The notes below the pieces were generated by a model. The model was not told where the DNA came from and ran no database searches. It saw nothing but the letters and a program-made list of their open reading frames with translations. Below, piece after piece: positions 12,873-26,709 of a stretch of 64,000 nt of DNA (position 1 is the stretch's first letter; each line of letters opens with the position of its first letter). The stretch is from the NCBI GenBank assembly GCA_002719815.1, contig PBET01000024.1, positions 3,393-67,392 of the forward strand, in the 5' to 3' direction. Source of the stretch: Methanobacteriota archaeon. Its GTDB lineage: Archaea; Thermoplasmatota; Poseidoniia; Poseidoniales; Poseidoniaceae. The position numbers were made by a program, and so were the translations under genes.

Positions 12873-13499
12873 ATGAAGCAGGCAACAGACGTCTTCAACG
12901 ATTGGGCACACCGAGGCAAAGACGAGGGTATGGAACGTGGACACAGTCCTGCTGTCAATGAAATGTTGGAGGTTGCTTTCCAACGAGTCAATCAAGGAAA
13001 TCAACCCTTTTCATTCGCTGATTTAGGATGTGGAAATGGCTGGGTTGTACGATTGGTTGGTGGGCATGAGAACTGCATGCGAGCTGATGGTTTTGATGGT
13101 GCACCGCACATGATTGAGAAGGCAAACAACATTGATTCGAAACATGGTTATCATCTTGCTCTGTTTCCTGATACACAACCTCCTCAACAATACGATTTCA
13201 TTCATTCAATGGAATTCATTTACTACCTTCATGAACCTCAACAGATGCTACAATCAATTCACGACGATTGGTTGGCCGATGGAGGTTGGGCTGTAATTGG
13301 AATCGATCATTATGCGGAACATGAGGAAAGTCTTGGTTGGCCAGAAGCCCTCGATGTACATATGTCGACATTTACAGAGCAGGAATGGATTGCAATGTGG
13401 AATGACGTTGGATTTACTGAAATTCATGCGTGGAGAGCAAACCAATCCGAAGGAAAACCAGGAACACTCGCCATCATTGGGAAGAAAAATCAGAATTGA
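12873..13499 (+). CDS. Class I SAM-dependent methyltransferase
   Basis: Motif I FADLGCGNGWVV; start chosen at ATG 12873 (MKQATDVF); 3' end overlaps convergent AddA-like gene by 26 nt. Confidence 0.7.
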   Translation: MKQATDVFNDWAHRGKDEGMERGHSPAVNEMLEVAFQRVNQGNQPFSFADLGCGNGWVVRLVGGHENCMRADGFDGAPHMIEKANNIDSKHGYHLALFPDTQPPQQYDFIHSMEFIYYLHEPQQMLQSIHDDWLADGGWAVIGIDHYAEHEESLGWPEALDVHMSTFTEQEWIAMWNDVGFTEIHAWRANQSEGKPGTLAIIGKKNQN

Positions 13500-16400
13500 T
13501 CCCCAACTCAAGGCCCTGTGGTGCACACATTCGTACATCGCCATTGAAAAATGGACACTTTTTGCAGATATCAATCGCTTCCATTGGTAAGCGCTTCGGT
13601 TCGGTAACACCGTTTGAATCTGCAGTAAGGGTTGCCATCCAATGCAGGAGATTCATCAGTTCTTCTTCTGCTTCTTTGCACATCTTATCCGGCATTTGAA
13701 CAAGACGTCCCGTCGTGGCGATCAAGAGTGCTGGTGGCCGAATATCTCGTCTCTTTTCAATGGGTTTTCGTTCTTCTTGCTCACGCAAAACCAATGAATA
13801 AAGCATCAGTTGCAAACGATGATTTCGTAGCATCTGAACCTCCGCTTGGTTTTGTGGTTCAAACGAGAGCGGTTCATTCAGCGTCTCGTACAACGGGTGC
13901 AGTTCGAGTTCTTCCTCTCGCGCACCTGTTGTTTTCAAATCAATAACCTGCAACCAAGCCTGTTGATCTTCACATCCTGCAACCACAAGATCTGCCTGCC
14001 CTTCAAAGAGAACATTGACCGCATCAATCACTGTTCGAAATGACTGGTCAAGTTCTGTGAGTGGTGTTCTCAAACGACCTTTCAGGTCGATTTGTTGATT
14101 GAAAGAAAACGACAACTCCGTTCGCAACCCTTCGATTTCATGGCCATGAATCGCTTGACCTTCGACCATTTTTCCTAAAGCTCCATTTGATAGTCGTTTG
14201 GCCAAATCAATGATTCGTTGCCTCGTTTGCTTCTGTTCATCGCTGGACAATCGATGCCACTCGGGTTGTGATTGCGTTGCATCATCGATTTCCTTATCCG
14301 ATAACAGGTGGTTTTGTTGAGCATTCAACCAAACTTGTCCTAATTCAAAGCCTGTTGTCTTCATTTCTGCTGGATTTGCAATTCCAATTTCAACGAGTCT
14401 GTGGAACATCGATCCAAAGGCAGTTGCCGATGGCCAGCCGACAGAATTAGCCGTTACATCTTCCCCATCGGACCGATCTTTAGTATCCTCCTCACTCGAT
14501 TCGAACTTCGTTTCTTGATGGAGTTTGAAAGGCTCAGATTGCCAGCCTCGTACATGCGACAACCAATAGCGTCGTCGGCAGGAATGGGCCGTATCTAAGC
14601 CATGGGCTGTCATCTTTAACGTCGGGGTTTGATAAACAACGGCTTGTTCAATCTCACTGTCATCTGTCGCTTGTTCAACGAGTTGTTCCATGTTCAGCCA
14701 GTTGGAAAGTACGGAAGTTGGTGATTGTTCGGCAAAGCAATCAGGATGGTGATACATACGCAAGCTCTGTAGCGAATCTTGCATAAATCCACTCGACGTA
14801 TACAACGCATAGGGATCAAACTTCAACGTCTGCTCGCCATATTCTGCTAAACGTTCTCCTTGAACATCGTTGGTAAGACTCCAAGGCTGTTCATCGCCTG
14901 ATGCCAATCCCATGTATCGGAAACCTTCAAGCATCAAATCGCCCATGTTGTTCCCTTTTGCATTCACCTTCATCTCAACCATTGCATCATCACTCAACAA
15001 GCAAGGAGCATTTGGCGAGCCAACGAAGATCAAGCGATCTTTCACCCTGGTAAGTGCAACATAGAATTGACGACGCAATTCAGCTTGATTTTGTGCCTTG
15101 TTCATTTGTTCAGCCAACATCCACAAGGCATCTTCAGGCTTCTCTTTCGACTTCCATGGCTGAATACGGCCTGCAATTACATCTGGTGTAATCAAGACAT
15201 TGTTCTGAGCTTCAATGCTTGAACTGCGACGTCCTGCTTCAAACAATCCTGTGACGATCACAACCGGCGCTTGGAGACCTTTTGCCCCATGAATTGTCAT
15301 GATCTGAATCGCGCCACTTGTTGGTAAAGAACGGGCTTGGGGACCTTTGTTCCCAAGTGTTCCGAACGCCTTCATCTGATCAAGGATCGAGGCGGGTTCG
15401 TGTCCTGATTCACCACCTAATTTTTGCAACATTGCGTACCATGTTTCAGCAACTTGTCGTTCAGATTCATCTGGGAATGCGATGAGGAGATCGCTGTAAT
15501 CCAAGACAGCATCAAAGATTTCGTACATGGCGCCAGAATGTACCAAACGAGCGCATGCTTCCATGAGTGGCCCTTGAGGTTCGCCATCAAAATAGTCGGA
15601 AAAGAAGTGCCAATAATTGTCCACATCCTTCGTTTGGAAAATCTCCTCAATCTGTATGGATGATGCCCCAATAATTGAGGAACGAAGGACGGAATGGGCG
15701 GCATGTCTTGACCCTGGTCGTGCGAGAAGTTCCAACATAGCCATCAACGGTTGAACGACGGGTTGCTTGAGCAACTCACCTTGTTTATCAGCCATAACCG
15801 GCAATCCACGAGCTTGGAGTCGTGCGATTAAGTCGGGAATGTGCTTTCGTGAGTGGACGAGAATCATCACATCTTCAGGCAGAATTGGCTCTTCTGGTTC
15901 TACTTCAACAAAATCTTCCGCTTCTGTTGACCATATCCGAGTTGGTGAGCCTCGAACCAAGGCATCCAATCGAGAAGCGATAAGTTCATGTTCCAAATGA
16001 CGGAGATTTGCATTTCCTGCATCGAACAAGTTGTACCCTTGTGTAAGGCCAAGTGGTAGTTCCTCGGTATCGTTTTGAGTCGGAAGAAGCCACTCGATTG
16101 TCCCTATGCGTTCCGTATCTCGTCCAGATTCTAAGGGCTGAGCAGTTGCATGGAAATCGCCTGGGAATTGGTGATGCCGATGATTAAACGTGTCATCAAA
16201 CATATTGTTGAGCGTTTGAAGTAGGCCAGGTGCTGTTCGGAAATTCGTTCTCAGTTGAATATGGCCTTCGGCTCGTTCAACGATTGTATCATCATCGATG
16301 GCGAGACCTGCGTCGTCAATTCCATAGGAAACGTAGTCGTACGGAGCTGATTTCTCATCTCGGGAATAATCAGCGGCGGAGATGAATGAACCAGATTCAC

Positions 16401-18447
16401 CACCTGCGCCGACGGGCCGAGGATCTCGGCCGTGCCCTTCTTGAGTAAAAGTCTCCATCCGTTTCTCATTAGCCTCGATCTGGTTCGCTACACGAATGGA
16501 TGCAACCATTCGACGCATAACCGTAACCTCAGCCTGACGGAATCGGTAGATGCTTTGCTTCATATCACCAACAATGCAGATGGTTGGGTCCCAGGGACCT
16601 GCTGGTTCAGGGTGTTCTTCGGAAATGCCCTCTCTTCGCCCCCAAAGTCGCGAAAGGAGACGAGCATGTTCTGGATTCGTATCCTGATACTCGTCGATAA
16701 TGAAGGCTCGATATCGTGCACGAATTTGCTTTAATAGCGCAAATCTTCGTTGAAGATCAACGTATTTCTCTTCATCACGTTGCATAATGGTCAGTGCTCT
16801 TCGAATATGTTCATCCGACCATGGCTCATCACCAAGGTCATCCAATGCCTGGACAGCCTCGGGCGGATACCAATGACGAACGATGGCTGGACAGCGAACA
16901 AGGAGTAAATCGCCGACCATGACTTGAACATCGTCAAAATCATGCGCTTCTTCTTGTGCCTTCAAGTGACGAAGTAAATCCTGACAGCCTGAATGAACTG
17001 TATACAAATCGTTCAGAACTTCAACCTGAAGGTCACTAGAAACCCTCTGCATACCAGATGGTGGTTCGGTACCCAACGAAACGCCCAGTGGATGGCGGTC
17101 GTATTTTTCATTCGCATCTCGATGGACAAAAGGCCGTACAGGATTGAGGCAGTAGGCAACTTTTGCAAGCATCAACACCAGACGCCCATCACTTGGGTCA
17201 TGAATCCGGTTTTGCAAACGAGTTGCAGCCTTGGAAGCATCTTTCATGAGTTGTTCCTTGGTTGCCTCCTCAGATTTACGCTTGAAGACTGATGACCACG
17301 TCATCAAGCCTGAAGGCCAGTCTGCTAGCGTATTTGCTCGGGGGAAGTGCCCGTCCTTGAGAATGGTTGGTGCTGGCTCCTTCAACTGTGCATGCGATGC
17401 GGCCGCTGCAACCACCTGGTACAACCACTGAAGTTGTTCTATCGGAGTTGTAGGCAGTGCTTCCCGTGCCAAATGAGCGAGTTGATTGAAACGAGTATTT
17501 GTTGTAGCAACTTGCGCTGGAGCGACAATCACAGAATGATGTTCGAGGAAAACATCAACCCATTCGTTAAGGAATGCATGTACATCTTGAACGACCGGAG
17601 TGATAAGGTGGTGACACTCCTGTAAAATCATGTCCTCAATAAGTCGGTAATCTGGAGGTGTGTCACCATCCCATGGTAAACCAGTTCGAATCGAACGTGA
17701 GCGAAGCCGTCGCTTAGATTCCTCGACAAATAGCGACGATTCTAGCAATCCTTCCAATGCCGTTTGTGCACTTGCTTGACCTCCAAGCCGGATTGCGAGA
17801 CGATTGCGGGCAGCGATGAAAGCATCAGCTGATTGAAGCATGCCCGCTTCGATTGCATCGCGAGCATTTCGTATACGCCAAGCCGCATTCAATGCTTGAC
17901 TTCTCAAAAGAGGGGCTTTTTCTTCAGGAAGTTGTTCTCGACTGACGTGGATTGCTACGAGATCGATATGCGGTGAGAGAATTTCCGACAGGAACGCATC
18001 GATGGTCGATATTGGTGATGATTCAAGCAACGACATCAGCATCGAAACATCGCCTTGGTGACGCAGACGTGGGTCATGCATCCCCATTCGGTCATCGTCT
18101 TTTACAGGATGAGCACGAAGCGATTGAATCCTTTGTCGAATTCTTGACCGCAGTTCAGATGCCGCCTTTCGAGTGAAGGTAATCGCGACGATTTCTTGTG
18201 GCAACAGTCCTTTCCATTCATTCAATGGAGTGCGATCTTTCTTTGCTGCGAGAACGTGGCCTGCACCATACTGTTCCAACCGAATTGGTGGCGGCAAAAC
18301 ATGCGTAGCTCGTTGCTCTGCTGAAAGAAGATGCTGAACATATCGTTCAGCCATAACGGTGGTTTTACCTGTTCCAGCACCAGCATCCAATGCGATGTGT
18401 TGATCGAGATTAAGACCCAGTCGCTGACTTCTGTTGAAGGAAATCAC
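13474..18447 (-). CDS. AddA/AdnB-like SF1 (UvrD-family) helicase fused to C-terminal RecB-family PD-(D/E)XK nuclease with 4-Cys cluster
   Basis: 1657 aa; motifs I AGAGTGKT, II FIIDEYQDT, III VGDMKQSIYRFRQA, IV LRTNFRT, V IMTIHGAKGLQAPVV, VI FYVALTRVKDRL; nuclease VIDLKTTG, QLMLYSLVL; CKKCPFFNGDVRMC. Confidence 0.85.
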   Translation of the reverse strand: MISFNRSQRLGLNLDQHIALDAGAGTGKTTVMAERYVQHLLSAEQRATHVLPPPIRLEQYGAGHVLAAKKDRTPLNEWKGLLPQEIVAITFTRKAASELRSRIRQRIQSLRAHPVKDDDRMGMHDPRLRHQGDVSMLMSLLESSPISTIDAFLSEILSPHIDLVAIHVSREQLPEEKAPLLRSQALNAAWRIRNARDAIEAGMLQSADAFIAARNRLAIRLGGQASAQTALEGLLESSLFVEESKRRLRSRSIRTGLPWDGDTPPDYRLIEDMILQECHHLITPVVQDVHAFLNEWVDVFLEHHSVIVAPAQVATTNTRFNQLAHLAREALPTTPIEQLQWLYQVVAAAASHAQLKEPAPTILKDGHFPRANTLADWPSGLMTWSSVFKRKSEEATKEQLMKDASKAATRLQNRIHDPSDGRLVLMLAKVAYCLNPVRPFVHRDANEKYDRHPLGVSLGTEPPSGMQRVSSDLQVEVLNDLYTVHSGCQDLLRHLKAQEEAHDFDDVQVMVGDLLLVRCPAIVRHWYPPEAVQALDDLGDEPWSDEHIRRALTIMQRDEEKYVDLQRRFALLKQIRARYRAFIIDEYQDTNPEHARLLSRLWGRREGISEEHPEPAGPWDPTICIVGDMKQSIYRFRQAEVTVMRRMVASIRVANQIEANEKRMETFTQEGHGRDPRPVGAGGESGSFISAADYSRDEKSAPYDYVSYGIDDAGLAIDDDTIVERAEGHIQLRTNFRTAPGLLQTLNNMFDDTFNHRHHQFPGDFHATAQPLESGRDTERIGTIEWLLPTQNDTEELPLGLTQGYNLFDAGNANLRHLEHELIASRLDALVRGSPTRIWSTEAEDFVEVEPEEPILPEDVMILVHSRKHIPDLIARLQARGLPVMADKQGELLKQPVVQPLMAMLELLARPGSRHAAHSVLRSSIIGASSIQIEEIFQTKDVDNYWHFFSDYFDGEPQGPLMEACARLVHSGAMYEIFDAVLDYSDLLIAFPDESERQVAETWYAMLQKLGGESGHEPASILDQMKAFGTLGNKGPQARSLPTSGAIQIMTIHGAKGLQAPVVIVTGLFEAGRRSSSIEAQNNVLITPDVIAGRIQPWKSKEKPEDALWMLAEQMNKAQNQAELRRQFYVALTRVKDRLIFVGSPNAPCLLSDDAMVEMKVNAKGNNMGDLMLEGFRYMGLASGDEQPWSLTNDVQGERLAEYGEQTLKFDPYALYTSSGFMQDSLQSLRMYHHPDCFAEQSPTSVLSNWLNMEQLVEQATDDSEIEQAVVYQTPTLKMTAHGLDTAHSCRRRYWLSHVRGWQSEPFKLHQETKFESSEEDTKDRSDGEDVTANSVGWPSATAFGSMFHRLVEIGIANPAEMKTTGFELGQVWLNAQQNHLLSDKEIDDATQSQPEWHRLSSDEQKQTRQRIIDLAKRLSNGALGKMVEGQAIHGHEIEGLRTELSFSFNQQIDLKGRLRTPLTELDQSFRTVIDAVNVLFEGQADLVVAGCEDQQAWLQVIDLKTTGAREEELELHPLYETLNEPLSFEPQNQAEVQMLRNHRLQLMLYSLVLREQEERKPIEKRRDIRPPALLIATTGRLVQMPDKMCKEAEEELMNLLHWMATLTADSNGVTEPKRLPMEAIDICKKCPFFNGDVRMCAPQGLELGINSDFSSQ

Positions 18448-21400
18448 TTTGTTTCACCTCCAATGGATGCAGAAGAGCACGCACTTGCGAGTGAACAATA
18501 CTTGCAGTGATCTCCTGGTGCAGGATGATTCCAGCCGAGTTCACTTGCATCCTGTGCCCGGATTGCGGCAGTAATTCTTGAACTCATCCACGCCCGGAAA
18601 CTGTTACTCTCCGGTGTTGTTCCTTCAGTTGGTATACGGAAATGATTTCCAGAGTAAAACGTTCGAGTTCCGATGGTTCGGCTTTCCTCAAGAAAAGCAA
18701 AACTCGGATCGAGTTCAAGGAGATGTTCCGTATCATCGCCCACTTCTGAGATACCAACGCCAATGACGCGATCGCCTGGATGTGCTAATTCCCAAGCACG
18801 AGCATAGAGTGCTAATTGAATCTCCTTGAAGAGGCCCGCGACATGTCGAATGCCATCTTCACCAGGTTTTGGTCCTTCGATGGTTTTGAGGTCTCGAATG
18901 ATGATGAAGCGCTTCGCAGGAGGTCCACTTCCATCAAAGAAAAGTGGCATCCCTTCTGCGCTCTCATCATAGAGCCCACGCTCGGTTAGTCGTTCAAGGA
19001 GCGATTCATCGAGAACAAGGTGATCAACGCGATCAATTCGCCCACGTAACTTGATGCATGAGGTTTCAAATTGATCATCAAACCCTTCGATTTCTACACT
19101 CAACTCCGTTCCATGTTGCAACGCCCATTCACTGGCAATTGGTGCTGCTGAGGTCAGGTTGAGATCTGCTAAAAGTAGACGTCCGAGTCGCCCTCCAATC
19201 GGAAGCGTTCCGTTGCCTTCAAGCCAATCGTTCCAATCTTCAGGCGAGCAGCCAATCAAATCATTGCAGCGATGAACGGAAACTGCATTTGTTCTCGATA
19301 ACCAGGGAGCGATTTCAGACAAATGCCAGAGCAAACTTTCCCATATTTCTTGGTTTGATAGTGAAGTTCCTTGATGCATTGGCGTACCTTCGGCCAGTGG
19401 CGTCCCTCCTACTTCAATTCCAAGAAGTGTCATGAGATGTTCCTCAATGGCATGAACCAACGTTCCTTTTGTGAGTGGCGCAATGTCTTCAGAGGGCTCG
19501 GGAGTGTTGTCCGTGGCATCGAGTGTCTGTTCAGACCATGCTTGTCGGGGGCAAGTCAGCCAAGGTGTTAATCGGCTTGTTGACCATGTCTTTGATTCCG
19601 TTTCGATCGGTTGACTGGAAAGAATTTCGTTCAGGCTTGGTGAACCATACGTAGGCGGAGGAAGCGGACGAGGGTCGAGTGAAGGCCCCCTCGAATTGCC
19701 ATTCTTCTTGTATCCGAGATGCGGATAGGATGCTGAGGTTCGACCACCACTCACCTCGGCTTGAGAGACCGTGGGTTCGATGACAAGGCCCGTTGTTGTG
19801 AGCAAGCTCTCCCGTATCTCCCATGGCAGAATGCTTCCATTTGCAAGTGGCTTGAATTTTGGTTGGCGACGATAGCGATCGAGATGCACATCGCGTTCAA
19901 ATCGATTCGCTATGGTATTCGCTGACTGAATCGTTCCACTCGGAGTCCGCAACGCTTTCAATTCAAGACCAGTCTGTTGTTGCAGATCTCGTTGCATGTT
20001 CTCTGCTCGTTCAAGTTCCACTTCACCACCGTTCACAGATAATGAAGAAGTTCGATATGTCAGCCAATTTCCTGTTTCTCGAGTCACAATTGACCATCCA
20101 GCACCATCAGAAACTTCTTCCTGCAGGAACGCTGGAATGGCCGCAAGATTCCGTAAATCACCTTGCAGTTCAACGCCTGAAAGGTACTCGACAACCGGTG
20201 TCGAATTACCCGCAGATTCATCATGTTCGGTATCGAAGAGGATCACTTGTTGGCTTGAATTTAGCACAGATTTGAAGAGATGACGCGCCTGACGAACGGG
20301 TAAGTCTCCATCATTCAAGCCTAATTCGACTCGAACAGAATCGTCAATCCAAGGCACTCGCTCAGGCTTCATCGACCATGACTCAGCATCAATTCCAACG
20401 AAGAGAGTGAGGTCCGATGCTACCCCAAACGCTTGCTTTGGTGTACAGATATGTACATCGAAATGACGAACTCGATTCATAGGTAGTTTGGTTTGATCGG
20501 CTGCTAACCGACAAAAATCAATGAATGGAAGACTCGACTGATATTGGAGCAAACCATCAACGGATCGGACCCATGATTGCACGGCACCTACGGAGGCATC
20601 GTAATGCCGTGTACGTTCAAACAACGCCTCCCAGTCACATGCATGTAAAATTGTGCTGAGTACGTCTCGTGGCGTTTTACTTGGCTCGGGCAAGGGTAGA
20701 GAAATGTTTGATGACGCGCCAACGAATGGATTCGCAAGGAAGTTTTTCTCGGTTTCATCGAGTAACGCAGTCCATGATGTTGCAAGGCATTGCAACCACC
20801 ACTGCGTCTCCTCAATCGCTCGCAATTCTTCCTCACGACGATAGGCTTCAACAGCATATGGTTTTGCAACAGCTAAAGAGCCAAGCCACCGTTGGAGCGC
20901 TCCTTTTCCGCCAAGAACGTGGAAACTGCGGCCGATGTTTTCAATCACGTCCAAGTGTGGCCTTGGCCGCCAATCCTTCTTTTCTGGATGGGTCAAATCG
21001 GAAAACAATTTGCCAATAATCGGGAACGCCTTTGACTGGGCGATATCGAACAGTTTAGCTGTTGACCATGCATCTTGGCCATTGGGAATTGACAGAAATC
21101 GAAGTATTGCTTGTATAGCAGAGGTACTTCCAACTGAATCTGCTTGAGTATCGCATGTAATTCCAATGCGCTGCAGACGGCGAATCCATTCCTTGTGGCG
21201 GCCCTTGTCGGCATCGATGAGAAGAATACGTCCTTGTTCATGCTTGTTGAAATGATTGATGACTGAAATTGCGGCATCTGGAATCTGCGAGGCTCGGTCG
21301 AAACTCAGTAAGTGGATTCCTTCTGTCGCGTAATCAGCGTTACCGGATGCTGGAGGCAGAACGGTATGACGTGGGACCCATTCTGGCAGTTGGTCATCGC

Positions 21401-22148
21401 GTTCCAAAAGCGGTAGTTCATCATCGATGTATGCTCCATGAAATCCGAGACGGAATGAGCCTGTGACACAAAGATGATGGATTGGGCTTCGCACTGATAA
21501 GGCCTTGAGAAACTGCTTCTCATCTTCATGAAAGTCAGGCGGATGGTTGAGAAGGAGGATACCACGAATTGCTCCAAGCGTGTAAGGCGTTGGAACATTC
21601 AAATCGGCGAGTGCTGAACAAATTCGGGCGATGACGTGGTGCTCATGCAGAAGATTTTCGTTTTCAAACGATGAAAGAATCCGATCTGCTTCAAATGCGC
21701 CGGGATCTTCTTCCCACGTCGAAAGGATACCATGTTTTGTTGCATACGCATGGAGAGAAAGCAAACGCTCTGATTTTGAAAGTGTCCATGGCCTGGTCAC
21801 GTCGGGATGGAGGCGAGGAAAACGATGATCTTGCGCTGCAGAGGCAAACTTTTCGTGAACTTGTACAAGACCAGTCGATGTTCTTGGCACAAGAACAGGT
21901 AGTCGGAGATCGATCGTTAAGGACTTCAAGAGTCGTTGAAGCGTTGTGTGTCTGCTTGAATCAACAGAGCCCGCTTTCTGAAGAATGGCCTGGATAGACG
22001 AGGACCGAGTGACTTCATTCGGATAGATGACCAATAAATCGTCCCGTCCTGTTGCAATTTCATCCACAACCCAGGACGGGACGGTCGTATCGAAAGGGCA
22101 TGACTCTACTGTGATGTTCTCAGCCATATCCTCCCCACCCATCTTCAT
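18444..22148 (-). CDS. AddB/RecC-like subunit: no Walker A, C-terminal RecB-family nuclease with AddB-type Fe-S Cys signature
   Basis: 1234 aa; GRIDRVDHLVL, FIIIRDLKTIEG, EIQLALYARA; Cys at TCPRQ plus CKYCSLASAC; 4-nt overlap with AddA-like gene. Confidence 0.8.
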   Translation of the reverse strand: MKMGGEDMAENITVESCPFDTTVPSWVVDEIATGRDDLLVIYPNEVTRSSSIQAILQKAGSVDSSRHTTLQRLLKSLTIDLRLPVLVPRTSTGLVQVHEKFASAAQDHRFPRLHPDVTRPWTLSKSERLLSLHAYATKHGILSTWEEDPGAFEADRILSSFENENLLHEHHVIARICSALADLNVPTPYTLGAIRGILLLNHPPDFHEDEKQFLKALSVRSPIHHLCVTGSFRLGFHGAYIDDELPLLERDDQLPEWVPRHTVLPPASGNADYATEGIHLLSFDRASQIPDAAISVINHFNKHEQGRILLIDADKGRHKEWIRRLQRIGITCDTQADSVGSTSAIQAILRFLSIPNGQDAWSTAKLFDIAQSKAFPIIGKLFSDLTHPEKKDWRPRPHLDVIENIGRSFHVLGGKGALQRWLGSLAVAKPYAVEAYRREEELRAIEETQWWLQCLATSWTALLDETEKNFLANPFVGASSNISLPLPEPSKTPRDVLSTILHACDWEALFERTRHYDASVGAVQSWVRSVDGLLQYQSSLPFIDFCRLAADQTKLPMNRVRHFDVHICTPKQAFGVASDLTLFVGIDAESWSMKPERVPWIDDSVRVELGLNDGDLPVRQARHLFKSVLNSSQQVILFDTEHDESAGNSTPVVEYLSGVELQGDLRNLAAIPAFLQEEVSDGAGWSIVTRETGNWLTYRTSSLSVNGGEVELERAENMQRDLQQQTGLELKALRTPSGTIQSANTIANRFERDVHLDRYRRQPKFKPLANGSILPWEIRESLLTTTGLVIEPTVSQAEVSGGRTSASYPHLGYKKNGNSRGPSLDPRPLPPPTYGSPSLNEILSSQPIETESKTWSTSRLTPWLTCPRQAWSEQTLDATDNTPEPSEDIAPLTKGTLVHAIEEHLMTLLGIEVGGTPLAEGTPMHQGTSLSNQEIWESLLWHLSEIAPWLSRTNAVSVHRCNDLIGCSPEDWNDWLEGNGTLPIGGRLGRLLLADLNLTSAAPIASEWALQHGTELSVEIEGFDDQFETSCIKLRGRIDRVDHLVLDESLLERLTERGLYDESAEGMPLFFDGSGPPAKRFIIIRDLKTIEGPKPGEDGIRHVAGLFKEIQLALYARAWELAHPGDRVIGVGISEVGDDTEHLLELDPSFAFLEESRTIGTRTFYSGNHFRIPTEGTTPESNSFRAWMSSRITAAIRAQDASELGWNHPAPGDHCKYCSLASACSSASIGGETK

Positions 22149-22160
22149 GCGTGGCGACAG

Positions 22161-22178
22161 TATAAAACTGAACGTTCA
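22161..22178. promoter_or_regulatory. TATAAAA element plus 10-bp palindrome TGAACGTTCA just upstream of the addB-like start (minus strand)
   Basis: Seen in sequence; spacing to ATG is short so assignment tentative. Confidence 0.3.
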
Positions 22179-22241
22179 AAATTTTGTTATTTTTTGTAGG
22201 GTGTTGGCATTTTTCATCGATTCTGAGGTGGATGTCGGATA

Positions 22242-22308
22242 ACATGAATTGTAACATGAATAATTCATGTTTTGTATAATTCAGAACATGAATCGTTGGA
22301 TTTAAATA
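22242..22308 (+). promoter_or_regulatory. Putative operator: four ACATGAAT half-sites (three direct, one inverted forming the perfect palindrome ACATGAATAATTCATGT) followed by TGTATAAT and TTTAAATA boxes upstream of the TFB gene
   Basis: Direct reading of 22242-22293 and TATA-like 22301-22308; SD-like GGAGGA precedes ATG at 22422. Confidence 0.45.
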
Positions 22309-22421
22309 GTACGGCGTCCATAAAGATACTCCAGCGCGTCGGTCCGAGCCCAATCCCACTTATTCCACCAACCCCTCGGACTTAATCATGTTGGAACAAA
22401 CAAGAACAAGGAGGACAAAAT

Positions 22422-23495
22422 ATGACGAAAAAGTGTGAAGAATGTGGCAGTTATGACTTGAAAGCGGACAACATCCGAGGCGAGGTGGTTTGCAACGATT
22501 GTGGACTTGTCATCGAGGATCAAGCCTCGGCGACCCAAAACGACAATGCAGGAACAATGTGGGGCGAAAATGCATCCAACACTCCGACCAAAGATGAAGC
22601 CAAGATTAAGACTGGCTCGAAGGGTAATGCGCTTGGTTCCTACATCGGTAAGCCAAATGAAGCGAAGGGCAAGTGGAAAATCCTACGACACCTGCACGCT
22701 CGAGATGTCAAGGACCTGCACCCAATGGCGCAAGCTACGATGGATGCTGCAAAGGAGTTGGCTGGCAAGGACAACGCCATGAAGGCGAAGAAAGTCATCA
22801 CCCTAGCGACCGTTCCACTCGATGATGAGAAAGCGAAGGCGTTGCGAGAAATCGCTGATGAGGAGGAAATCATCCTTCCAAAGAACTCTGTTTGCCGAAA
22901 GAAAACCCGAGGGGGAAGCACCCAGAACAACGAGAAGTTGCTTGCGCTGGGTTGTCTGCGAGCACATCAGGAGCGAACTGGCAAAATCAACATCGATTGG
23001 CCCCAGATGGTTGAAGGCACTGGTTTGACCATGGCTCAGGTTGTTGATGCTGCAAAAGTCATCATGAAGTACCTTAATCTATGCGAGAAAGCGCATCTTA
23101 TCGAAGAGCGAGCAGACCGAAGAACTGTTCATCTCGAGTTGCGAAACACCGAAATCGAGAACACTACGCTTCGACTGAAGCAACTTCTCGAAGATGTTGA
23201 TGAATCCGTGAAGACGCAAATCATGGACGATTACAAGCAACGACTCTTCACCTTGGGTGAGCCGACATTAGGCGGTTCACCGTTCTCAAGCGAGAACATT
23301 GAGGCCAAGGTCCTCTGCGCAATTCTCTTCCAAATCTCATGCGAGTCCTTTGGTGTTGAACAAGGACGGCTCGAGAACATCGCTCATGCGATTGGTCGAT
23401 GTCGAAACACCATCAAGAACCGCCTCAAGTCCCTTCGAAAGAAGGTGGCGTCTGGTGAGCTGGTTGACTTTGGTGTCTTGCAGAAGAAGCACTGA
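22422..23495 (+). CDS. tfb: Transcription initiation factor IIB (TFB), divergent paralog
   Basis: N-terminal Zn ribbon CEECGS..CNDCG, B-linker-like GSKGNALGSYIG...KWKILRHL, two degenerate cyclin folds (LALGCLRAHQERTGKINIDWPQM, KVLCAILFQISCESFG). Confidence 0.75.
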   Translation: MTKKCEECGSYDLKADNIRGEVVCNDCGLVIEDQASATQNDNAGTMWGENASNTPTKDEAKIKTGSKGNALGSYIGKPNEAKGKWKILRHLHARDVKDLHPMAQATMDAAKELAGKDNAMKAKKVITLATVPLDDEKAKALREIADEEEIILPKNSVCRKKTRGGSTQNNEKLLALGCLRAHQERTGKINIDWPQMVEGTGLTMAQVVDAAKVIMKYLNLCEKAHLIEERADRRTVHLELRNTEIENTTLRLKQLLEDVDESVKTQIMDDYKQRLFTLGEPTLGGSPFSSENIEAKVLCAILFQISCESFGVEQGRLENIAHAIGRCRNTIKNRLKSLRKKVASGELVDFGVLQKKH

Positions 23496-23542
23496 ATCGT
23501 GAGATGGATTATCTCATTAAGGAGAGGTTCGTCCAGCGATAC

Positions 23543-24442
23543 ATGACTCGATTGCTCGTTGTTGGAGTTTTAGTTGTCCTGATGGTTTCTGTTGTACCTG
23601 TAGCGCATGCTGCGGAGATTAAAGAACTTGAAACAGGCATGCTCTTTGGTGGACTTCATGGAATGGCGAATGAGACCATCGTCGTCAACAGTAGCCTAGA
23701 AGATCTTCCTGCAATTGCTGAAGATTACACAGCCACCTGGTGTGGAAATTGTGTTGAAGTCGGCAATGCGCTCGAGACTGTGGCGGAGAACATCAGCATG
23801 GAGATCTATGCTGTTCATCGGAACATCTACGAGACTCAGGATCCACTAGGCAACGAGAATGTCGACGCACGCTTTAGGGACCGATACGATATCTATGCGC
23901 CAGAATTCAAACCTCCTGTGGCCGGTATCAATGGCAAGTACTCCCTTCGTGGTAGCAACCCTGTTGGTGATTCTCTGGAATCTGACTTTGCAGACTTAGC
24001 ATCACAACCGCATAATCTTGGAGATGGTTCCGTCACAATGACATGGACACCAACGGGTGATAATTCAGGAACTGTCGCTTGGAGCATTGATCAATCAACC
24101 AGTGCAGTTTACAATGTAACCATATGGATGGTCGAGAAAGAAGCTTACTTCCCAGATGGTACAAACAACCAGATCTACTACCATCACATTGTTCGTGAAA
24201 TCATTGATGTGGGAACTGTTACTGAAACTGGACTGAGTACGGGAACTGAGCAGATTACCTATGCCGATGCATACGATGATGATGACCTTGAAGTCCATAT
24301 CATGTTCCATGAGTACATCGAACGTCCTGAAATACAAGACGAGACCCCAACAGAACCTACCTCAGAGGATACACCCTTCCTCTCCATGCCTTTGACGATA
24401 CTTGCCCTTCTTGCAGTAGCCCTACGGCGACAGGATCAGTAG
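23543..24442 (+). CDS. Secreted thioredoxin-fold (WCGNC) protein with Thr/Pro-rich linker and PGF-CTERM-like sorting tail (PFLS...TM...RRQDQ)
   Basis: Signal peptide after ATG 23543 (alt ATG 23504); CxxC motif TATWCGNCVEV; C-terminal hydrophobic helix + basic residues. Confidence 0.65.
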   Translation: MTRLLVVGVLVVLMVSVVPVAHAAEIKELETGMLFGGLHGMANETIVVNSSLEDLPAIAEDYTATWCGNCVEVGNALETVAENISMEIYAVHRNIYETQDPLGNENVDARFRDRYDIYAPEFKPPVAGINGKYSLRGSNPVGDSLESDFADLASQPHNLGDGSVTMTWTPTGDNSGTVAWSIDQSTSAVYNVTIWMVEKEAYFPDGTNNQIYYHHIVREIIDVGTVTETGLSTGTEQITYADAYDDDDLEVHIMFHEYIERPEIQDETPTEPTSEDTPFLSMPLTILALLAVALRRQDQ

Positions 24443-26709
24443 AAATCAACCATGTTTGCGTGAAGTCGAGCATCAACTTCTGGCATGCGATCAGGCGGAC
24501 GTCCCACCTCGATGAAACGAAGAACGTAATCATCGATGTTTGCAAATCCAAACTCTTCGGTCATCGGTTCCATGAGTTCTCGCAACGCCTGTCGAGGATC
24601 TGCAATTGGGAAATCTCGACGGATGAAGACTTGGTTTAATTGACGATAACGTGCATGTCTGTATCCCAAAATCTCAAGGATTCGGCGAAGTGCATCTTCT
24701 TCTTGGGCAGATCGGATGGTTAGTCGCAAACGACATCCTTGCATCCGGAACATTCCACGCACACCACCGAGTTCGACCTGATGGCCAATCGGTTGCAGCG
24801 AAAGTGCCTCCCACACCAGTGGCATCGTTCGATACCAGCGATAGAATTGATCATCTTGACGAGGCTCTCTGGGTTCTTCTTCATTCTGAAACGGGGGATT
24901 TACAACAAGATTCTCTCGGATTTGTTGCCATCGAGGGAAGATGACTTGTTGTTGCAACCTCTGACGATAAAAATCTCCTTCTAAGATTTGATCATCATCA
25001 AATTCGTAATCAAAATCTGGATTTAAGTGGCCAGGCATATCGAAACCAACTTCCCGACCGGGACGTTGTTTCCAGTCTGCAACAATTTCCTCATCAGTCA
25101 TCAATTTCAAAGAACGGAATGCGATTGGTTCTTCTTCTTCCCCATCACCAAGGAGAAGACGATGAAGATGAAATCTGTGTTGCTTCCCAGATCGCTTGTA
25201 GAAGTCTTCTGGGTCCGCCCCTGTGTCTTTTTGAGCTACCCCGATTGGTGGCTGGGTCAGCAAATGCATCTGCAAACTATTCACCCGTTTCGAAGTCGTG
25301 ACATCTGAGAGAAGCGAGAGTATGACAATTGCAATGGTATCCCCTATCGGGATATCTTTGTGGTAGTTTCCTGTATGAATGCAAATCGAATGCCGATGCG
25401 TCACAGTCTTACCAACACCATGAATTTTGAAAGGTGCATTGTGTGCACCACGACCAATTCGAACCTCGTAGAAATGGCCAAGCATCCCTCGAACGAGCAT
25501 GCGGTCTCGATGAACCCAGGTATCGTTCGGGAATTGTTGAAGAACGCCTCGCAAAAATTGCATTGAACGGCGGAAGGGGACATTCGCAGTCTCAGCATTT
25601 TCATATGCTGCCGTCCAATTCATCTGCGTAGCAATGAGCCATTCGCCTTCTTTGGAACCGTGTGGGGAAGATCCCCATGAAATCAATCCAGCCAAGAGGC
25701 CTGGCACGAAGGGAATTTTTGCTCGGCGTACACTTCCATTCTTCGCCAATGTTCTAAAACAGAGATTTCCCTTAGAATTGACCATAAATGGGAAACTAAC
25801 ATTTGCATGTTTCACGGATTCTGACAACTCAATCCAACGTTGAACCCAGGGCCATTGTGAAGGCGGAATCGCCCTATTTTCTTGGTTCCGAATAAAGCGC
25901 CGTGCAAATTTCATCCGTTGTCTTGGTCGACGACCTGCCATTCGTTCCATCAAGTGGGACGACCAATCAGACCCGTCAGAAAAGAGTGGTTTCTTTTTAC
26001 GGCGCTCGTTTTGATCTAAGAGAAACGATGTTTGGACAAATACATCAAAGGGAGAAAGGAGTTCACGTTCAAATTGTCCAAACAGTCGATGGTAACGCTG
26101 TAGGATTCGTCGAGGGCGTCCTTGAGGATCGAGTGTTTGGTACAACCCACTCAACGCTAAGAAGAGCTTGACGAGATCCCAACCTTTGCGTTCTTCAGGA
26201 TTCAGGAGAAGCAAGAGGTACTGCTCCATCGGAATTCGAGCCTCGTGAATCCGCCCGTCGATGGTCATTCGTCCATCGATAAATGCGAGAAGCGTTCCAT
26301 CCCACATCACGAAGCCTTCCTCAAGGCGTTCCTTTTCGTAACCAGAATAACCTGTTTGCTTTTCGAGTTTTTCAATAAAGATGGACTCTTCTTCTTCGGG
26401 AAATGGGGAGTGGCGGACGGGATCTTGATCCGCCTCATCAAGACGGGCCCAGTCAACATCGGGCGTATGATTCATGAAGCGTTCGAGATTTCCCCAGCGC
26501 TTTTTCAATGAACGAACTGGCCCGCCAAGGACCGATGCCATGCGTTGATGGACTTCAAGAGGCAACGATGGTGCCCATTTACTCTCTTCGGTCAATTCGA
26601 TGCAGCGTATGCAGATTGGACAATTCGTTTCAGTATTTTCATTTTGGCAGATGCCACAGGCTTCCCCAATCATGGGGATACTGAATGTCGAGGTGTTAAA
26701 AAGTTTCAA
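24436..26709 (-). CDS. Large uncharacterised protein with N-terminal Cys-rich zinc-ribbon (CGICQ...CPICIRC), His-rich core and acidic segments
   Basis: 757 aa single long ORF, translationally coupled (4-nt overlap) downstream of threonine aldolase; no family recognised by eye. Confidence 0.7.
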   Translation of the reverse strand: MKLFNTSTFSIPMIGEACGICQNENTETNCPICIRCIELTEESKWAPSLPLEVHQRMASVLGGPVRSLKKRWGNLERFMNHTPDVDWARLDEADQDPVRHSPFPEEEESIFIEKLEKQTGYSGYEKERLEEGFVMWDGTLLAFIDGRMTIDGRIHEARIPMEQYLLLLLNPEERKGWDLVKLFLALSGLYQTLDPQGRPRRILQRYHRLFGQFERELLSPFDVFVQTSFLLDQNERRKKKPLFSDGSDWSSHLMERMAGRRPRQRMKFARRFIRNQENRAIPPSQWPWVQRWIELSESVKHANVSFPFMVNSKGNLCFRTLAKNGSVRRAKIPFVPGLLAGLISWGSSPHGSKEGEWLIATQMNWTAAYENAETANVPFRRSMQFLRGVLQQFPNDTWVHRDRMLVRGMLGHFYEVRIGRGAHNAPFKIHGVGKTVTHRHSICIHTGNYHKDIPIGDTIAIVILSLLSDVTTSKRVNSLQMHLLTQPPIGVAQKDTGADPEDFYKRSGKQHRFHLHRLLLGDGEEEEPIAFRSLKLMTDEEIVADWKQRPGREVGFDMPGHLNPDFDYEFDDDQILEGDFYRQRLQQQVIFPRWQQIRENLVVNPPFQNEEEPREPRQDDQFYRWYRTMPLVWEALSLQPIGHQVELGGVRGMFRMQGCRLRLTIRSAQEEDALRRILEILGYRHARYRQLNQVFIRRDFPIADPRQALRELMEPMTEEFGFANIDDYVLRFIEVGRPPDRMPEVDARLHANMVDFY

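Follow-up and report, generated by a model that had tools for sequence, protein, structure and literature searches.

Canonical archaeal TFB, as in Pyrococcus (core structures 1AIS and 1D3U, ribbon 1PFT; one PF08271 and two PF00382 matches; NF001658), is built of a zinc ribbon, a B-reader/linker segment, two cyclin repeats and a helix-turn-helix (HTH), in that order. Several archaeal lineages carry additional TFBs. Those of the Halobacteria (TfbA-G) and the Thermococcales (TFB2) are lineage-specific, are thought to direct or modulate promoter subsets, and are clearly PF00382-positive and close to the housekeeping TFB. TFB3 of the Sulfolobales, a non-canonical paralog that also stands beside a housekeeping factor, is short, has no cyclin core and acts together with TFB1. 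It is inducible by DNA damage (PMC6101594, PMC6101591). Here we describe a divergent gene of the TFB family, with the promoter module and 5' leader that precede it, in a 64,000-nucleotide stretch of DNA (hereafter the window) from a Methanobacteriota archaeon of the family Poseidoniaceae (GenBank assembly GCA_002719815.1, contig PBET01000024.1). The gene looks like a specialised, tightly controlled initiation factor because it encodes a fast-evolving TFB relative and lies behind rigidly spaced, conserved half-sites and a structured leader. Marine Group II archaea are uncultured and rank with the most abundant archaea of the plankton. In the literature searched we found no published account of their gene regulation, and the Red Sea Marine Group II mdRNA-Seq paper holds no usable information on TFB or on this promoter; the TFB-like family, its operator and its leader appear to be undescribed there.

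The open reading frame announced by the original prediction, 22422-23495 on the plus strand, was found in the sequence, and its start codon stands at a conserved position, occupied by ATG here and by TTG in many orthologues. Where the start is TTG, as in the clade-A loci L010-L023 and others (L numbers denote the loci compared), gene callers add 29 upstream codons, which gives 386-aa database versions. The protein has 64 detectable homologues, all of marine Poseidoniaceae type; two names occur among them, 'TFIIB-type zinc ribbon-containing protein [Candidatus Poseidoniaceae archaeon]' and 'TFIIIB Brf1/TFIIB', the latter given by IMG annotators to two members. A scan of species-representative genomes gave 34 loci, mostly from Poseidoniaceae, Poseidoniales or generic Thermoplasmatota/euryarchaeal metagenome-assembled genomes (MAGs), with protein identities of 52 to 96%; the bacterial names of two of them look mis-assigned. 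The gene order is kept: the minus strand carries the AddA-like and AddB-like genes, the plus strand then carries the TFB-like gene followed by one for a membrane-anchored thioredoxin-like protein, and next comes a minus-strand gene of about 750 aa. Family alignment puts identity within the Poseidoniaceae at 52-55%. A whole-library profile search reached full-length relatives at 20-27% identity, and orthologues at this distance retain the block AddB-like (-), TFB-like (+), ~300 aa, ~750 aa, Beta_elim_lyase. The TFB-like gene is thus single-copy and syntenic throughout the Poseidoniaceae, and a very diverged form is present in other marine Poseidoniales-type archaea. In all lineages where the flanking DNA suffices, the distant loci L173 and L178 included, it is transcribed divergently from an operon for an AddB/AddA-like helicase-nuclease. 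A tblastn search of a phage collection returned no viral relatives.

On profile comparisons and a predicted structure, the 357-aa protein genuinely belongs to the TFB family, though it has diverged strongly, because profile-profile, core-only and fold comparisons agree. When a 27-sequence family profile was compared with eight canonical TFBs by hhalign, columns 5-350 paired with columns 7-301 (Prob 99.2%, E 8.7e-20), and with ribbon and linker removed the core was still matched (Prob 91.6%, E 8e-7). The order of the parts is that of canonical TFB, with a putative B-reader/linker, and two motifs are shared, RG.S...A..L.A(C)R in repeat 1, where RGGS..LLALGCLRA stands opposite RGRSI..AA.LYAACR, and T(I/V)(K/R)NR.K.L in the C-terminal HTH of repeat 2, where GRCRNTIKNRLKSL aligns with GVTEVTIRNRYKEL; this HTH is predicted to be of the type that recognises the B recognition element (BRE), as in TFB. 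The A2 family profile also matches the Pyrococcus TFB core in the PDB (1ais/1d3u, residues 129-193, E 0.008). In the zinc ribbon, which matches 1pft by phmmer, C5, C8, C24 and C27 are invariant even in 20%-identity relatives. An AlphaFold (AF2) model contains 12 helices, with a predicted local distance difference test (pLDDT) score of about 80-90 over core residues 100-357, and its top 14 Foldseek matches are all TFIIB, Brf2 or TFB chains. TFIIB of Pol II pre-initiation complexes comes first, then Brf2, then the P. woesei TFB core, and cyclins come after these.

The divergence from canonical TFB is considerable: identity is about 14-21%, the linker is longer and lysine-rich, insertions precede repeat 1 and separate the repeats, where the model places extra helices, and the family evolves far faster. 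The B-reader/linker-like segment is highly conserved within the family and predicted to be disordered (pLDDT <50, residues 31-99); hhalign pairs its MWGE, NTPT, GNALGSYI and KGKWK with the TFB blocks EWR, G.P, GL.T.I and RL..W. PF08271, hhalign and Foldseek thereby bear out the zinc ribbon, B-linker-like block, lysine-rich linker and degenerate cyclin folds that had been read from the sequence. Failure to find the TFB cyclin core in a profile search had been named as evidence to the contrary: Pfam hmmscan does lack it, PF00382 having no match at E<=1 in this protein or in the eight divergent relatives scanned, and the NCBIfam TFB model NF001658, with its cut-off of 384, gives 27.7 bits, whereas hhalign and the fold comparison recover the core. 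In this the family differs from the halobacterial and thermococcal paralogs: it lies below Pfam repeat detection and has a conserved operator and leader of its own. Annotated just as 'hypothetical' or 'zinc ribbon-containing', it is an uncharacterised TFB lineage that shows how far the TFB fold can drift.

The promoter of the gene is organised around the 9-mer AACATGAAT, which occurs at 22241, 22253 and 22285 on the plus strand and, inverted, at 22263. Four copies in 53 bp is far above chance, as the window holds one further copy and 1.69 are expected for its whole length. The four ACATGAAT repeats originally predicted (22242, 22254 and 22286 on the plus strand, 22263 on the minus strand) are therefore there, but only three are conserved; the perfect palindrome formed by two of them is also there (22253-22271), with a length of 19 bp (AACATGAATAATTCATGTT) and not 17. 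This palindrome, made of half-sites P1 and P2, recurs nowhere else in the window, also when two mismatches are allowed, and is found once per locus in 35 of 42 related loci. The same pattern run against viral contigs gave at least 120 matches, a chance-level number.

We compared the upstream regions of 32 species-level Poseidoniaceae loci. The palindrome lies 168-173 bp before the start codon in all of them (168-170 in 31), and not a single insertion or deletion separates it from the third half-site (P3) or from the TATA box TTTAAATAG in any of the 32. Information content is 1-2 bits on P1, P2, P3 and the TATA box and mostly <0.5 bits in the spacers, which have diverged heavily while the half-sites were kept, even relative to strains with 99% and 96% protein identity. 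Conservation is not a product of the pattern used for anchoring: P3 (offsets 32-40) lies outside it and carries 1.05-2.0 bits, its core A, G, A being invariant in 32/32 loci, and palindrome positions outside the pattern are likewise near-invariant. The half-site centres fall at 0, 10 and 32 bp, and P1-P3 therefore all lie on the same face of the helix, with the third site two helical turns on. The W positions of the two arms vary independently, complementary combinations (16 loci) being as frequent as non-complementary ones (16 loci). There is thus no selection for a hairpin, and the motif is shown to be of a non-hairpin nature, which indicates that each half-site is recognised by a protein.

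The TTTAAATA box of the original prediction (22301-22308) is the TATA box, conserved at fixed spacing. The TGTATAAT box (22273-22280) is present in the window but is not conserved, and it is of a bacterial type in an archaeon. The 22241 copy of the repeat is also lineage-specific: strain L194, with 99% protein identity, has AATATGAAT in its place, and L009, with 96%, has TTAAATATC. In the BRE position (22294-22300), which P3 adjoins directly upstream, the sequence is variable and not A-rich. In clade A, GGATGTCGGATAA (window 22230-22242) is conserved just upstream of the palindrome; the leader of the distant locus L173 (2872-2945) contains a similar sequence, GATGGCGGATAATC, as a perfect inverted repeat of 14 bp whose arms are separated by 46 nt.

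This layout recalls the palindromic-box arrays of other archaea (Ss-LrpB with its three 15-bp boxes, and SurR/TrmBL1-type arrays), in which inverted half-sites about one turn apart and a further site phased by whole turns also lie near BRE/TATA, an arrangement that implies cooperative binding of dimers. It differs in that the third site is an orphan half-site and that one target promoter is known, and AACAWGAA-N3-TTCWTGTT is not known to match any archaeal regulator motif. The repeats, predicted to be the site of a dimeric regulator, are a deeply conserved cis-element with a geometry that is consistent with a dimeric DNA-binding protein. The motif persists in the most distant lineages: L173 has ATCATGAA-GGT-TTCATGTT upstream of TTAATATAT; in L191, AACAAGATT-A-ATTCATGTT follows TTTATATATA after 6 bp and covers the expected start site; L178 has AACATGAAT-AGA-AATCATGTT within the leader; and in L193 an AACATG half-site precedes TTTAAATAG by 11 bp. 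The HTH helices of the TFB-like proteins of these lineages read RNTIKNR, GAGVKSR, AQGLANF and PLAVMKL. A constant motif facing such different helices suggests that the operator is more likely bound by a separate conserved dimeric protein than by the TFB-like protein. Small open reading frames upstream of the distant orthologues in L173 and L191 were considered as regulators and rejected, their translations looking spurious. The operator, very clean in its layout and rigid to the base pair, can be synthesised and used as a direct bait for a Marine Group II transcription regulator.

From the usual archaeal distance between TATA box and start site, we infer that transcription starts at about 22328-22334, so that the leader would measure about 90 nt. 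Applied to 21 clade-A species, RNAalifold predicts a two-helix fold for it (H1, 22331-22338/22387-22394; H2, 22341-22348/22375-22382) around a C/A-rich, G-poor loop. Covariation supports the fold within clade A: 89% of cells are paired against 28-50% in slid controls, the covariation value is 0.34 against <=0.20 in those controls and is reached by none of 500 shuffles, and 7 of the 8 H2 pairs show compensatory changes. The minimum free energy structure of the window's own sequence is the same, with a z-score of only -1.06. Clade-B leaders fold into an analogous rod, and a clade-A covariance model, with or without filters, does not match the homologous positions of clade-B loci or of distant lineages; Rfam gives only noise, and no family for the leader, on the intergenic region. 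The purine-rich Shine-Dalgarno region is single-stranded in the predicted folds. The GGAGGA that had been noticed before the ATG is conserved in clade A, and in clade B a purine tract, GGAAGAAGAAGG, takes its place. The 3' strand of H1 contains AATCATGTT (P4, 22384-22392), which resembles a fourth inverted half-site and may be conserved for its role in the RNA, in the DNA or in both. The covarying leader RNA is, after the protein and the operator, a third asset of the locus.

The best explanation, which we regard as probable though far from certain, is that the locus encodes a specialised TFB paralog placed behind a rigid operator module, where a regulator gates TBP/TFB, and behind a structured leader. 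A conserved dimeric, probably higher-order, sequence-specific DNA-binding protein would occupy the 19-bp operator, extend cooperatively to the third half-site adjoining the BRE position, and so gate the access of TBP/TFB to a promoter whose TATA box fits the consensus and whose BRE is not recognisable. Repression would be the most likely outcome, because the L191 palindrome overlaps the expected start site. The leader structure (~65 nt) may add a post-initiation layer, at mRNA stability or translation, and the product would act as an alternative TFB-family initiation factor beside a DNA-end-processing operon.

Several observations weigh against this explanation. Among the genes linked to the locus there is no candidate for the regulator, and further copies of the operator, which would define a regulon, are missing from the window at up to two mismatches, with one copy per related locus. 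The palindrome changes position relative to the TATA box between lineages, the partner half that a second dimer at P3 would use (offsets 42-50) is not conserved, and P4 is transcribed and lies in an RNA helix, so that selection on the RNA could account for some of the conservation of the motif. The AF2 model is only moderately confident (mean pLDDT 69.8), and a different arrangement of the domains keeps its Foldseek TM-scores low (0.3-0.45). Sites upstream of BRE/TATA, such as those of the Poseidoniaceae, are moreover more typical of activators in characterised archaeal systems.

It is because of this upstream position that activation stays a rival. The palindrome and P3 would then form an upstream activating site, from which the regulator brings TBP/TFB to a promoter whose BRE is weak and non-consensus, in the way that TFB-RF1, Ptr2, SurR or TrmBL1 activate at upstream sites. 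All three conserved sites do lie on that side of BRE/TATA, P3 ends 7 bp before the TATA box, and the BRE position is variable and not A-rich. We think this reading rather unlikely: the L191 palindrome, directly downstream of the TATA box, and that of L178, in the leader, are at repressor-type positions, and it would be unparsimonious to suppose that orthologues differ in the sign of their regulation. Direct autoregulation, which the original prediction had raised as a possibility, would have the TFB-like protein read the AACAWGAAT half-sites through its HTH or in a complex with TBP. The lack of any other linked regulator gene, the joint passage of motif and gene through very distant lineages and the adjacency of P3 to the BRE position, where the HTH of a TFB would sit, speak for it. 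It is nonetheless disfavoured, and we judge it improbable, as the putative recognition helix changes strongly while the motif stays constant, the place of the palindrome relative to the TATA box varies across lineages, and an inverted repeat with 10-bp spacing implies a symmetric dimer, whereas TFB binds DNA as a monomer beside TBP (1D3U/1AIS). Finally, the repeats could act as nucleic-acid structure, be it a hairpin, a terminator, a cruciform or a pairing of the upstream copies with P4. The palindrome followed by TTTT does resemble a small hairpin with a U-tract, its right arm and P3 score as a terminator-like stem, the motif pair in the L178 leader could form a 9-bp stem, and P4 is part of a covarying helix. 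We regard this as highly improbable: the uncorrelated W positions mean that it is the sequence, not complementarity, that is conserved, P1-P3 stand upstream of a conserved TATA box and thus outside the transcript, and their spacing to it is fixed to the base pair.

The protein itself might be the strongly diverged housekeeping TFB of the Poseidoniaceae, with no specialised paralog involved. A tblastn search of the 64 kb with eight canonical TFBs matched only the zinc ribbon of this gene, and database searches with a TFB profile and a marine TFB returned canonical TFBs of other or unassigned taxa, none of which could be tied to a Poseidoniaceae genome, which also counts against the preferred explanation; the strong conservation of the B-reader/linker-like segment would suit a housekeeping role too. 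A Poseidoniales (MGIIb) MAG, however, is annotated with a 326-aa K03124/arCOG01981 TFIIB, whose best eggNOG match is MG2_1391 of a Poseidoniales reference genome, and transcription initiation factor IIB is listed among the highly transcribed genes of the Thalassarchaeaceae (PMC9723583). Canonical TFBs are about 77-81% identical across euryarchaeal orders, whereas the TFB-like family drops to about 20% within one order, between lineages with identical synteny, and an operator and structured leader of its own would be unusual for a general factor. The housekeeping role is hence quite improbable in our view, and we favour a fast-evolving, lineage-specific, specialised paralog of TFB, because of the TFIIB annotated in the Poseidoniales MAG and because the family diverges far faster than canonical TFBs. 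Among the loci retrieved, a canonical marine TFB of 308 aa (L043-L052, L181-L190) belongs to an abundant archaeon and lies in the order Sec61beta-HEM4-PHP-Gar1-TFB-FtsJ; the TFB-like gene is outside this Gar1-TFB context. We rejected it as the TFB of our organism: its source DNA is of low GC content (34-36%, against 47% here) and its relatives are named Hydrothermarchaeales.

The fixed pairing with an AddA/AddB-like operon of the kind that processes double-strand breaks hints, from gene order, at a link to DNA damage and offers a testable hypothesis of a DNA-damage circuit in these archaea. It is tempting to speculate that the paralog is the initiation factor of a double-strand-break response in Marine Group II, silenced by a repressor at an SOS-box-like operator and released by damage to drive the AddAB-like operon and other targets, the leader adding translational control. 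We hold this to be unlikely as it stands. If true, it would be a euryarchaeal counterpart of the crenarchaeal TFB3 circuit, built in a different phylum from a full-length TFB with core and HTH. Coordinates of the features are collected in Table 1.

Table 1. Features of the TFB-like locus, in window coordinates
Feature	Position	Strand	Evidence or remarks
TATA box of the addB-like promoter	22159..22168, TTTTATA at 22167..22161	-	GGTATAAAAG conserved in all loci
Conserved TTTTGTTATTTTTT between the two promoters	22182..22195	.	TGTTATTTTT core in all Poseidoniaceae loci
Lineage-specific extra AACATGAAT copy	22241..22249	+	Outside the conserved module; low information at offsets -12 to -4
Operator palindrome AACATGAAT-A-ATTCATGTT (half-sites P1, P2)	22253..22271	.	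Consensus AACAWGAA-N3-TTCWTGTT
Third half-site P3, AACATGAAT	22285..22293	+	Family AWCAWGAAT; 13 bp after the palindrome, 7 bp before TATA
TATA box TTTAAATAG of the TFB-like gene	22301..22309	+	29 bp past the palindrome end in 32/32 loci; 1.1-2.0 bits per position
Structured 5' leader	22331..22394	+	H1 and H2; RNAalifold, 21 clade-A species
Shine-Dalgarno-like GGAGGA	22410..22415	+	6 nt before the start codon; GGAGG invariant in 21 clade-A loci
Divergent TFB-family gene	22422..23495	+	357 aa, ATG; open reading frame list, homologues, hhalign, Foldseek
TFIIB-type zinc ribbon, residues 4-34	22431..22523	+	CxxC...CxxC; PF08271, 36 bits (cut-off 29)
Lysine-rich extended B-reader/B-linker-like region, residues 35-100	22524..22721	+	Family alignment, pLDDT, hhalign
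Helical core, two degenerate cyclin-like repeats with insertions	22722..23450	+	AF2, Foldseek, hhalign
C-terminal HTH, residues 314-343	23361-23450	+	TIKNRLKSL aligned to TFB TIRNRYKEL

On the side of the addB-like gene, the TATAAAA noted earlier (22161-22167) is present, is conserved in related genomes and is the TATA box of the addB-like promoter. The TGAACGTTCA palindrome beside it (22169-22178) exists in the window and is not conserved in related loci. The intergenic distance of 273 bp given in the original prediction holds for the longest addB-like frame (start 22148); the start is most likely 22127 (MAENITVE), where the orthologues begin (MQNVTVE in L001, MIVNITVE in L007), and the distance becomes 294 bp. 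A Shine-Dalgarno sequence, GGGGAGGAT, lies upstream of this start on the minus strand. The very large AddA/RecB-like (1657 aa) and AddB-like (~1227 aa) proteins (window 13474-22127, minus strand) are conserved across Poseidoniales-type archaea and score far under the equivalog cut-offs of bacterial AddA/RecB models. A defence-system reading of the neighbourhood was dropped, PADLOC giving only generic UvrD-helicase matches for the AddA-like protein.

Downstream, the gene at 23504-24442 encodes a membrane-anchored product with a weak thioredoxin-like match. Its start is probably at 23543 (MTRLLVVG...), preceded by AAGGAGAGG, which leaves a gap of 45-47 nt as in L001 and L007, and it may be co-transcribed with the TFB-like gene. 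The 757-aa protein that follows (24436-26709, minus strand) has no significant match in Pfam, NCBIfam or PADLOC. It carries an N-terminal cysteine cluster, CGICQ...CPICIRC, and is syntenic with the TFB-like gene across the order, its counterpart in L178 having 756 aa.

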